Program-made: the position numbers and the translations under genes | Part shown: in pieces, positions 3,101 through 5,859 of the stretch | How the letters are laid out: each line of letters starts with the position of its first letter | Position numbering within the stretch: position 1 is the first letter of the stretch | The notes under the pieces: model-generated | What the model saw: the letters and a program-made list of their open reading frames with translations, nothing else | What the model was told of the DNA's origin: nothing | Database searches by the model: none | Origin: Escherichia coli | GTDB lineage: Bacteria > Pseudomonadota > Gammaproteobacteria > Enterobacterales > Enterobacteriaceae | NCBI RefSeq assembly: GCF_003334335.1 | Contig: NZ_QOWQ01000019.1 | Reading direction: 5' to 3' (one strand) | Length of the DNA: 64,000 bases

Positions 3101-5859
3101 GCGCCATAGGCCGCCATACCTGCGCCGGCGTTATAAATAGTTATAACACCGCCCAATTGGTTAATTGCTGTTGCATTTTTCCCTGCACCACTATAACTAT
3201 CAGTACCAACTCCCACACCTGTACCGAAGTCAATGGCGCTGTTGCTAGCTATATCTCGCATTGCGGTAGTGTCATTTGCATCTACCCACATAGAATCCAG
3301 TGTAATTTTACCCTGATTTTCTGCTGTTGAATCTGCTATAGCAAGCATGCCGACACTACCACGACCATACAAATCAATGATGCCGCTGTCAGTATTGATA
3401 ATTGTGCTATTCGATTGAGCGACTAACCCTGTTATGCTACTGACATCGTTATTAAAAATAAATGAATTCGATGTGCCCGTTGAATACTTGTTAAATACGC
3501 TATGTTGTTCCGTCACTTTACCTGTGATCGTACCTGCATTAGTGGCGCTCCCTCCGTTAGTAGCCAGTAAAACAATGGGAGACGGTGCCGGATCTTTACC
3601 ATTTTGTAATAACGAGATCGTGCCACTATTTATACCTGTTGTATTTTCACCAGTAACAAAAGCAAAACCTAAATTCTGAATTTCAACAGTACCTTTATTA
3701 ACAATTTTCGCACCGGAATCAGCATAAGTAAGTTCTGGGGTTCTTGTCCCATGATGTTCAAAACTGTCAATATCCTGCATTGTTAGCGTAGCGCCACTGC
3801 CAATTTCCAGCAAAGCTTTATCCTGTACCCGAATAACCCCGGCAAACCCCAGAGGGAATTCTCCGCTGATTGTCGTATCTCCATTCAGATATACCGACGA
3901 CTCACCACTAACGACAATAACGCTGGTATAACTATATCCTGTGCGCAAGGAAGTAACCTGCGACCCATCTGCAAGCGCGTTTTTCTCTCCAATCAGTTCA
4001 AGTCCACCATTCATATTAACGGTATTGCCATCGCCAATCACAACCAGACCTGACGTTTTCTCTGCGCTGCCATCAAATAAATTACTCTGACGAGAAGTAA
4101 CCTCACTGTCTGATACAACAGTTAACTTTCCATCCAGCGTCACGTTATTATCACTGCCGTAAACGTTGATACCCACGGATGGATCGAAGAAATATTCCGC
4201 CGCATTGTCTGCGGTTTTATCCTTATCAACCAGAATGTTACCAGTGATATTCACTGTATTCGCATCGCCAGAAACGTTTATGCCCGTCGCTTTCTGCCCG
4301 ACCACTTTTAGATCTTTTGCCGCCAGCGTCACGCTGTTATTGTTGCCATTAAGATCTACCCCGGTCGAGAAATCGCCAACCTGCATACTGCCTGCCAGCG
4401 AAACCTTCCCACTGTTGGTTGTGATGCTGAACCCTGTCGCTTCATTGCTAACGTTAACATCACCCGTATTGGATACTGTTGCCCCCTCACCGTTGATGAG
4501 CACGCCAATCGATCCAGTATCGGAAACAACAATATCTCCTTTGTTGTTAACCGTGCCGTTGTCACCAATGTTCTCAACACCATGCGCACCGCCTGTAACA
4601 GTCAGGCTACCATCCAGATTTACAATGCCGATATTGCCCGCGATTTTGGTACCCGTGGAATCTTTTCCATCAACAGTGGTTTTTCCACTGTTATTCGCGG
4701 TGGCGTCGTTACCGTTGATCTGAGTGCCGGTGCCGCCATTGGTGATAGTGCTCTCGCCTTCGTTATTGACGATGGCCTGGTCGCCGTCAATCTGGATACC
4801 GATGGACTCCGGATCGGTGACGGTCATGGTGCCCTTGTTATCCACCGTTGCGCTGTCGCCGGTGATATCAATACCGTGACCGCCGCCGCTGACATCCAGA
4901 TCGCCGTCCTGAATAACTTTTCCGTTATTACCGTTGATTTCCGTACCGGTGGAATCCTTGCCGTCAACGGTGGTTTTGCCGTTGTTGTTTGCCGTGGCGT
5001 CATCACCATTAATCTGGGTGCCGGTGCCACCGTTGGTGATGGTGCTCTCGCCTTCGTTATTGACGATGGCCTTGTCACCGTCGATCTGGATACCCATGGA
5101 CTCCGGATCGGTGACGGTCATGGTGCCCTTGTTATCCACCGTCGCGCTGTCACCGGTGATATCAATACCGTGACCGCCGCCGCTGACATCCAGATCGCCG
5201 TCCTGAATCACTTTCCCGTTATTACCGTTGATTTCCGTACCGGTGGAATCTTTACCGTCAACGGTGGTTTTGCCATTGTTGTTTACTGTGGCATTATCAC
5301 CCGTAATAACAAGCTCACCGTTGTGATTATATTGCCACTTCGTTGCGCCATCTGCGCTCACCCCTTCAAGGGCAACAGTGTTATTCGCTTCATCAATCTG
5401 CCAAAGATTAATCGTTGCCTTACCGACCATTGCTATCTTGCAGAGATATAGTCCCGTCAGCATTCTCGGTATAAGTAAAAACTGAATCGCGAATAGTTAA
5501 CGTTTTTTCTGTTTTATCGAGAATAACGTCATTATTAAACGAAACCGGTTTGGGAGGTGTAGGCGTATCATCCGGATCGTCCGGTATTCGTCGTTTAGTT
5601 CCACTACGGCTAAGGCCGTGATTAACGCAGCAGCGCCTGTGGAAAGCCATGGCATCAGGTTTTGTTCGACTAAAGGAGAGCATTCAGAGGGTAAGCGTTT
5701 AAGCTCTTCCGGACTGAGTTTTCCTGGGTCTGCCGGACAAGTCACATTGGTATTTTTCTTTTCACCTGTGGTGGTTTCTACCTCTGTGATATCTGCCGCC
5801 CAACCCTGACCACTCAGAGCTAATGCAATACAGGCCGACAATAGAGTTTTCCTTTGCAT
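193..5859 (-). pseudogene. ydbA: ydbA-like autotransporter adhesin, apparently disrupted near the 5' end
   Basis: The 1756-aa ORF (193-5463) is a Gly/Thr/Asn-rich passenger with a C-terminal beta-barrel ending in F. The signal peptide MQRKTLLSACIALALSGQGWA is in a separate 120-aa ORF (5497-5859), same frame but separated by a TAA at 5497-5499. Passenger-like sequence between them (TPTPPKPVSF...ENADGTISLQDSNGR) is in a different frame (5420-5683), implying frame changes near 5590 and 5430. Confidence 0.55.
4630..5330 (-). repeat. Coding tandem repeat, about 2.3 copies of a 300-bp (100-aa) unit, inside the autotransporter passenger
   Basis: Near-identical DNA recurs at a 300-nt period (for example gttattaccgttgatttccgtaccggtgg at about 4924 and 5224). 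The protein shows NNNGKTTVDGKDSTGTEINGNNGKVIQDGDLDVSGGGHGIDITGDSATVDNKGTMTVTDPES repeated. Confidence 0.8.

Follow-up and report, generated by a model that had tools for sequence, protein, structure and literature searches.

Does the ydbA gene on contig NZ_QOWQ01000019.1 of the Escherichia coli assembly GCF_003334335.1 still encode an exported surface protein, or is it a dead gene? In the 64,000-nucleotide stretch of this contig that we analyzed (the window), ydbA lies on the minus strand and is of the BigA/YdbA type of classical autotransporter, and its 5' end is spread over more than one reading frame. An earlier reading made from the sequence alone (the sequence-only reading) had proposed two compensating frameshifts or, alternatively, sequencing errors in a repetitive region. 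We are highly confident that the locus is a recently inactivated, lineage-specific ydbA pseudogene allele, broken by two independent small mutations, both in non-repeated sequence near the gene's 5' end.

The list of open reading frames (ORFs) for window positions 1-8000 contains three minus-strand ORFs that frame the problem, at 5497..5859 (120 amino acids, aa), 193..5463 (1756 aa) and 5420..5683 (87 aa). The 120-aa and 1756-aa ORFs are in a common frame (5859-5463 = 396 = 3x132), with a TAA at 5497-5499 between them. The tail that runs into this TAA, YRTIRMIRLHLPNRFRLIMTLFSIKQKKR, is an out-of-frame translation, and the native sequence (..IPDDPDDTPTPPKPVSFNNDVILDKTEKTLTIRDSVFTYTENADGTISLQDSNGR) is found in the frame of the 87-aa ORF. 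Three-frame translation places the plausible continuation, IPDDPDDTPTPPKPVSF...TISLQDSNGR, in this second frame and the long body back in the first. The sequence-only reading was thus right about the ORF coordinates, the shared frame and the TAA, and translation confirms its view that the residues before the stop are not passenger sequence and that the native sequence lies in the 5420-5683 frame. The parts of the broken gene are as follows.

193..5859, minus strand: ydbA pseudogene, 5667 nt versus 5769 nt in the closest intact orthologue
5497..5859, minus strand: truncated ORF of 120 aa, with 90 native residues, E91 at the junction and 29 out-of-frame residues, ending at the TAA 5497-5499
Between 5588 and 5589, minus strand: junction of a 103-bp deletion, intact nt 272-374 lost (orthologue alignments)
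5425..5588, minus strand: native coding sequence, out of frame between the lesions; its native frame coincides with the 87-aa ORF 5420..5683
5423..5424, minus strand: +1 G insertion, GG versus a single G in intact genes (orthologue alignments)
193..5463, minus strand: 1756-aa ORF without signal peptide; first 13 codons out of frame, native frame from 5422 downward

When the gene is aligned to YPE10, D9, 20A24 and a K-12-like genome and compared base by base, exactly two indels appear across its whole length. The intact references are the annotated autotransporter proteins D9 YdbA (WP_074014160.1, 1922 aa) and YPE10 YdbA (WP_001326908.1, 2020 aa). Rather than a single continuous frame across 5400-5860, which the sequence-only reading had named as the outcome that would speak against it, the alignments to intact orthologues show two frame changes; these had been guessed near 5590 and 5430 and fall between 5588 and 5589 and at 5423/5424. 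The upstream lesion is a 103-bp deletion that takes out residues 91-125, an acidic proline-rich linker (DDDHHHRNNSPLPPTPPDDESDDTPVPPTPGGDEI). A repeat-mediated origin was rejected, because the junction has only 1 nt of microhomology, which leaves a plain non-homologous deletion. Downstream, the extra G turns GGTCGTAAGG into GGTCGGTAAGG within the BigA_N coding region and, in the native frame, gives an immediate TAA (GGT CGG TAA). The idea that this G is the footprint of an insertion sequence (IS) is unsupported; the IS1 of strain 730V1 sits ~45 nt upstream.

The proposed compensation holds as arithmetic only. The lesions (-103 and +1) sum to a net length change of -102 nt, and this multiple of three keeps the body in the frame of the signal-peptide ORF. 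The upstream lesion is not a single-base slip. Nothing is restored, because the stop at 5497-5499 falls between the two lesions. Taken singly in silico, the deletion leads again to the 120-aa product and the +1 G to one of 180 aa; either lesion by itself would be sufficient to inactivate the gene. Repairing both in silico gives an open 1922-aa ORF that differs from D9 by 12 nucleotides and 6 residues, and from 20A24 by 3 residues, a count that includes the nonsense codon of 20A24 itself. That repair yields a fully open 1922-aa ORF indicates that the inactivation is recent and that the remaining gene has not yet decayed. Compared with the intact orthologues at the same locus (D9, YPE10), the window gene carries the frame-disrupting lesions and the premature stop of a pseudogene.

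The gene is 99.8-99.9% identical to ydbA of the phylogroup A E. coli strains 20A24, D9 and AHB21, and it occupies the usual position beside paaY-paaX-paaK. The N-terminus at 5859 has a basic n-region, a hydrophobic core and small residues at -3 and -1, as read from the sequence. BigA_N (PF25784) was detected with Pfam on the intact D9 protein at residues 140-220 (E = 4e-33), and the C-terminal 1100 residues of the window ORF were searched for BigA_beta and the Autotransporter beta-domain. The coding regions map as follows.

5797..5859, minus strand: Sec-type signal peptide (MQRKTLLSACIALALSGQGWA, followed by AD), read directly from the sequence
5302..5545, minus strand: BigA_N beta-barrel domain, split by the +1 G; mapped from intact residues 140-220
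1240..1491, minus strand: BigA beta-sandwich domain (BigA_beta, PF25783), Pfam E = 3e-25 on the window's own ORF
286..876, minus strand: autotransporter outer-membrane beta-barrel (translocator) domain, PF03797, Pfam E = 9.5e-19 on the window's own ORF

The order BigA_N, BigA_beta, Autotransporter beta-domain is the layout of a classical autotransporter. Of the features that mark a type Va autotransporter of the BigA/YdbA subfamily, the C-terminal PF03797 barrel and the BigA-specific domains are present, but Sec signal peptide, passenger and barrel do not form one polypeptide, as the TAA at 5497-5499 intervenes. Because that stop cuts the signal peptide off from the 1756-aa body, the locus is a pseudogene of the autotransporter family and not a functional member.

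Two further observations concern the gene itself. Downstream of the signal peptide there is a second strongly hydrophobic stretch, MPWLSTGAAALITALAVVEL (5595..5654, minus strand; residues 69-88; Kyte-Doolittle mean about 1.7); it is kept in all aligned YdbA N-termini and is unusual for the N-terminus of an autotransporter passenger. At 4915..4936, in the passenger repeats, 5-8 nucleotide differences from 20A24 and D9 are packed into 22 nt of a gene that is otherwise almost identical, a cluster that would fit a short tract of conversion from one repeat unit to another.

Could the gene in truth be intact, with both indels introduced by errors of sequencing or assembly because of its repeats? The long internal repeats of ydbA do break short-read contigs, and the allele is missing among the listed best matches in complete RefSeq E. 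coli genomes, with neither lesion in any best-ranked match among 5,426 of them. Both lesions, however, map upstream of the passenger repeats, where the sequence is unique. Nor is a 103-bp deletion the kind of error that homopolymers cause, and the change from a single G to GG creates no long homopolymer. The exact 120-aa product is already in RefSeq (WP_133301522.1 / HAH2855854.1) and is present on 7-8 contigs in the protein collection. Both lesions were found in 5/5 retrievable loci (GCA_012531195.1, SRR25738534, SRR3824134, SRR27904302 and SRR27434586), which come from assemblies of different runs; two of these loci match the window without a difference for 13.8 kb and 8.6 kb, and SRR25738534 differs from it by 3 single-nucleotide polymorphisms nearby. 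Since other assemblies share the lesions, one of them with these polymorphisms, the allele is one that a small lineage inherits, not an error of sequencing or assembly. The artefact explanation raised by the sequence-only reading is hence extremely unlikely. A real allele might still yield a protein by an unusual route. The 193..5463 ORF is completely open over 5.3 kb, and its ATG at 5463 lies 34 nt after the TAA; a start codon near an upstream stop can permit low-level reinitiation (translational coupling). Reinitiation at ATG 5463 or ATG 5430 could in this way keep the 1756-aa ORF expressed, with a partly functional product. No properly spaced Shine-Dalgarno was found before either ATG. The restart at 5463 suggested by the sequence-only reading is conceivable as low-level translation, and its further point stands that the product would not be exported, because the signal peptide is missing. 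Type Va secretion depends on a Sec signal: a protein that lacks one does not enter the periplasm, and its beta-barrel is not inserted in the outer membrane. The restart product would also lack the first half of BigA_N, leaving no route to the periplasm or outer membrane, and the open frame is accounted for by recent inactivation, given only 12 nt differences from D9. We therefore consider functional reinitiation very unlikely.

Programmed recoding, in which +1 and -1 ribosomal frameshifts would bypass the lesions to give a shortened exported autotransporter, has in its favour that a net loss of 102 nt preserves the frame. It would require two separate events at sites without a known slippery motif, in a shifted stretch that is native sequence and contains no conserved recoding cassette. 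All intact orthologues lack the lesions and read straight through, and the lesion pair is not conserved outside one lineage; we give this explanation next to no credence. Little weight also goes to the notion that the lesion pair is something other than neutral decay, that loss of YdbA was selected in this lineage (for example, as escape from phage or host immunity), and that the restart product or the secreted 120-aa fragment, which comprises the signal peptide and a conserved region whose hydrophobic helix spans residues 69-88, then has a function of its own; we hold this to be distinctly improbable.

The inactivated allele is thus the reading that we prefer, and two points weigh against it. 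The completely open 5.3-kb downstream ORF could hint at residual constraint, although a recent inactivation predicts it just as well. Furthermore, no single-lesion intermediate was found, and an origin of both lesions in a single complex event is formally conceivable. The intermediate was sought through the exact 180-aa '+1 only' product, and this search returned only gene calls ending at contig ends (...GGTCGTA). W5-6, with a match one base longer, was considered as a carrier of the same allele and rejected; its linker contains a +1 T, which is a different change, and an IS3 is inserted upstream.

A separate observation was made on contig ends. The contigs of four unrelated short-read assemblies (GCA_025609555.1, SRR19091902, SRR19372720 and ERR3414592) end inside ydbA at ...GCAATGGTCGTA(A), the equivalent of window ~5421-5423 and 2-3 nt from the position of the extra G. 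A repeat at this point may be responsible, or an IS insertion, or a mixture of strains.

In the pseudogene allele, a non-homologous 103-bp deletion removed the linker that joins the N-terminal region to BigA_N, and a separate 1-bp G insertion arose inside BigA_N. Translation from the true start would then produce the signal peptide and 90 native residues, shift frame at the deletion and end at the TAA 5497-5499. The passenger and beta-barrel sequence, although still open, would be unlinked from the signal peptide, and no surface protein would be made. That the lesions sum to a multiple of three is a coincidence without functional consequence. Judged from the sequence, ydbA function has presumably been lost in carriers of the allele, which suggests relaxed selection on the YdbA surface protein or selection for its loss.

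The window allele is one more case of recurrent ydbA decay in E. coli. Among its relatives, ydbA is independently disrupted by IS2 and IS30 in K-12-type genomes, by IS3 in AHB21, by a nonsense codon in 20A24, by IS1 in 730V1 and by the +1 T and IS3 in W5-6, and other N-terminal truncation alleles of YdbA are 124, 187 and 200 aa long. Full-length ydbA has been reported in about 42% of phylogroup A genomes (PMC4951805). Such repeated loss through IS insertion, nonsense mutation and frameshift fits relaxed selection or selection against a large surface protein. Dead genes of this known kind have arisen repeatedly in E. coli strains; the window allele is an ordinary example, with little significance beyond annotation. 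The annotation should read one ydbA pseudogene in place of a 120-aa 'hypothetical protein' (WP_133301522.1) and a separate large autotransporter fragment. One more independent inactivating ydbA allele is added, and the lesion pair could act as a lineage marker along with the paaA-paaK fusion described below.

The sequence-only reading had called the gene IS-free. This is correct for the inside of the gene, but its 3' flank holds the end of IS1414 (IS256-family) at window 1..77, which is 100% identical to the copy in strain H8. The insertion lies 115 nt beyond the stop codon of ydbA, at a point from which the sequence of relatives runs on toward pdxI. The GCA_012531195.1 contig ends exactly at this IS1414 breakpoint. 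On the other side of ydbA, 7813..9996 (minus strand) encodes an in-frame 727-aa PaaA-PaaK fusion, made of the first ~290 residues of PaaA and of PaaK from residue 3, with the junction at about 9122/9123. paaB-paaJ are deleted, and the phenylacetate degradation pathway is consequently lost. The exact fusion protein occurs in 385 contigs, and PMC4951805 reports a paaA-paaK fusion for DEC6A, DEC6B and other strains. An engineered or reduced-genome origin, which so neat an in-frame fusion might suggest, was rejected in view of the 385 natural contigs and the published description. An Rfam scan of window 1-12000 gave no match.

Farther along the window, the ORF list alone shows only about 750 bp between two ORFs at 27030..28163 (377 aa) and 28915..29850 (311 aa). 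From their sizes and the K-12 gene order, we take these to be ompN and ttcA, which the Rac prophage separates in K-12; the prophage would be absent between the two putative genes here. The K-12-like BHUCD01 aligns to window 30000-50000 only with about 1.2 kb of additional sequence.

How, then, does the window allele compare with known systems? The Salmonella adhesin BigA shares the BigA_N, BigA_beta and C-terminal regions, with the best stretch at residues 1120-1922 of the D9 protein, whereas its passenger repeats differ from those of YdbA. On the intact D9 orthologue, NCBIfam NF033178 (auto_BigA) scores 1067 bits against a curated cut-off of 3400. A score this far under the cut-off makes YdbA a homologue of BigA and not its equivalog. 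The literature on YdbA function yielded passing mentions only, as an autotransporter pseudogene. The closest intact counterpart is the YdbA of D9, from which the repaired window sequence is only 6 residues away. D9 and YPE10 YdbA have signal peptide, linker, BigA_N, repeat passenger, BigA_beta and autotransporter barrel in the same order as the window, but their genes are single continuous ORFs, whereas the window allele ends after 120 aa. The K-12 ydbA pseudogene (ydbA_1 / ydbA_2) is the same gene at the same locus, paaXY - ydbA - pdxI, and is likewise non-functional; its 5' 800 nt are 99.9% identical to the window, the two lesions aside. As the sequence-only reading had stated, K-12-type genomes carry insertion sequences in ydbA (IS2 plus IS30), and the orthologue alignments bear out its suggestion of an independent route to inactivation through small indels. 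In K-12 the break by IS2 and IS30 is in mid-gene and the 5' end is intact, whereas the window gene contains no internal IS and is broken within its first 440 nt by the 103-bp deletion and the +1 G.
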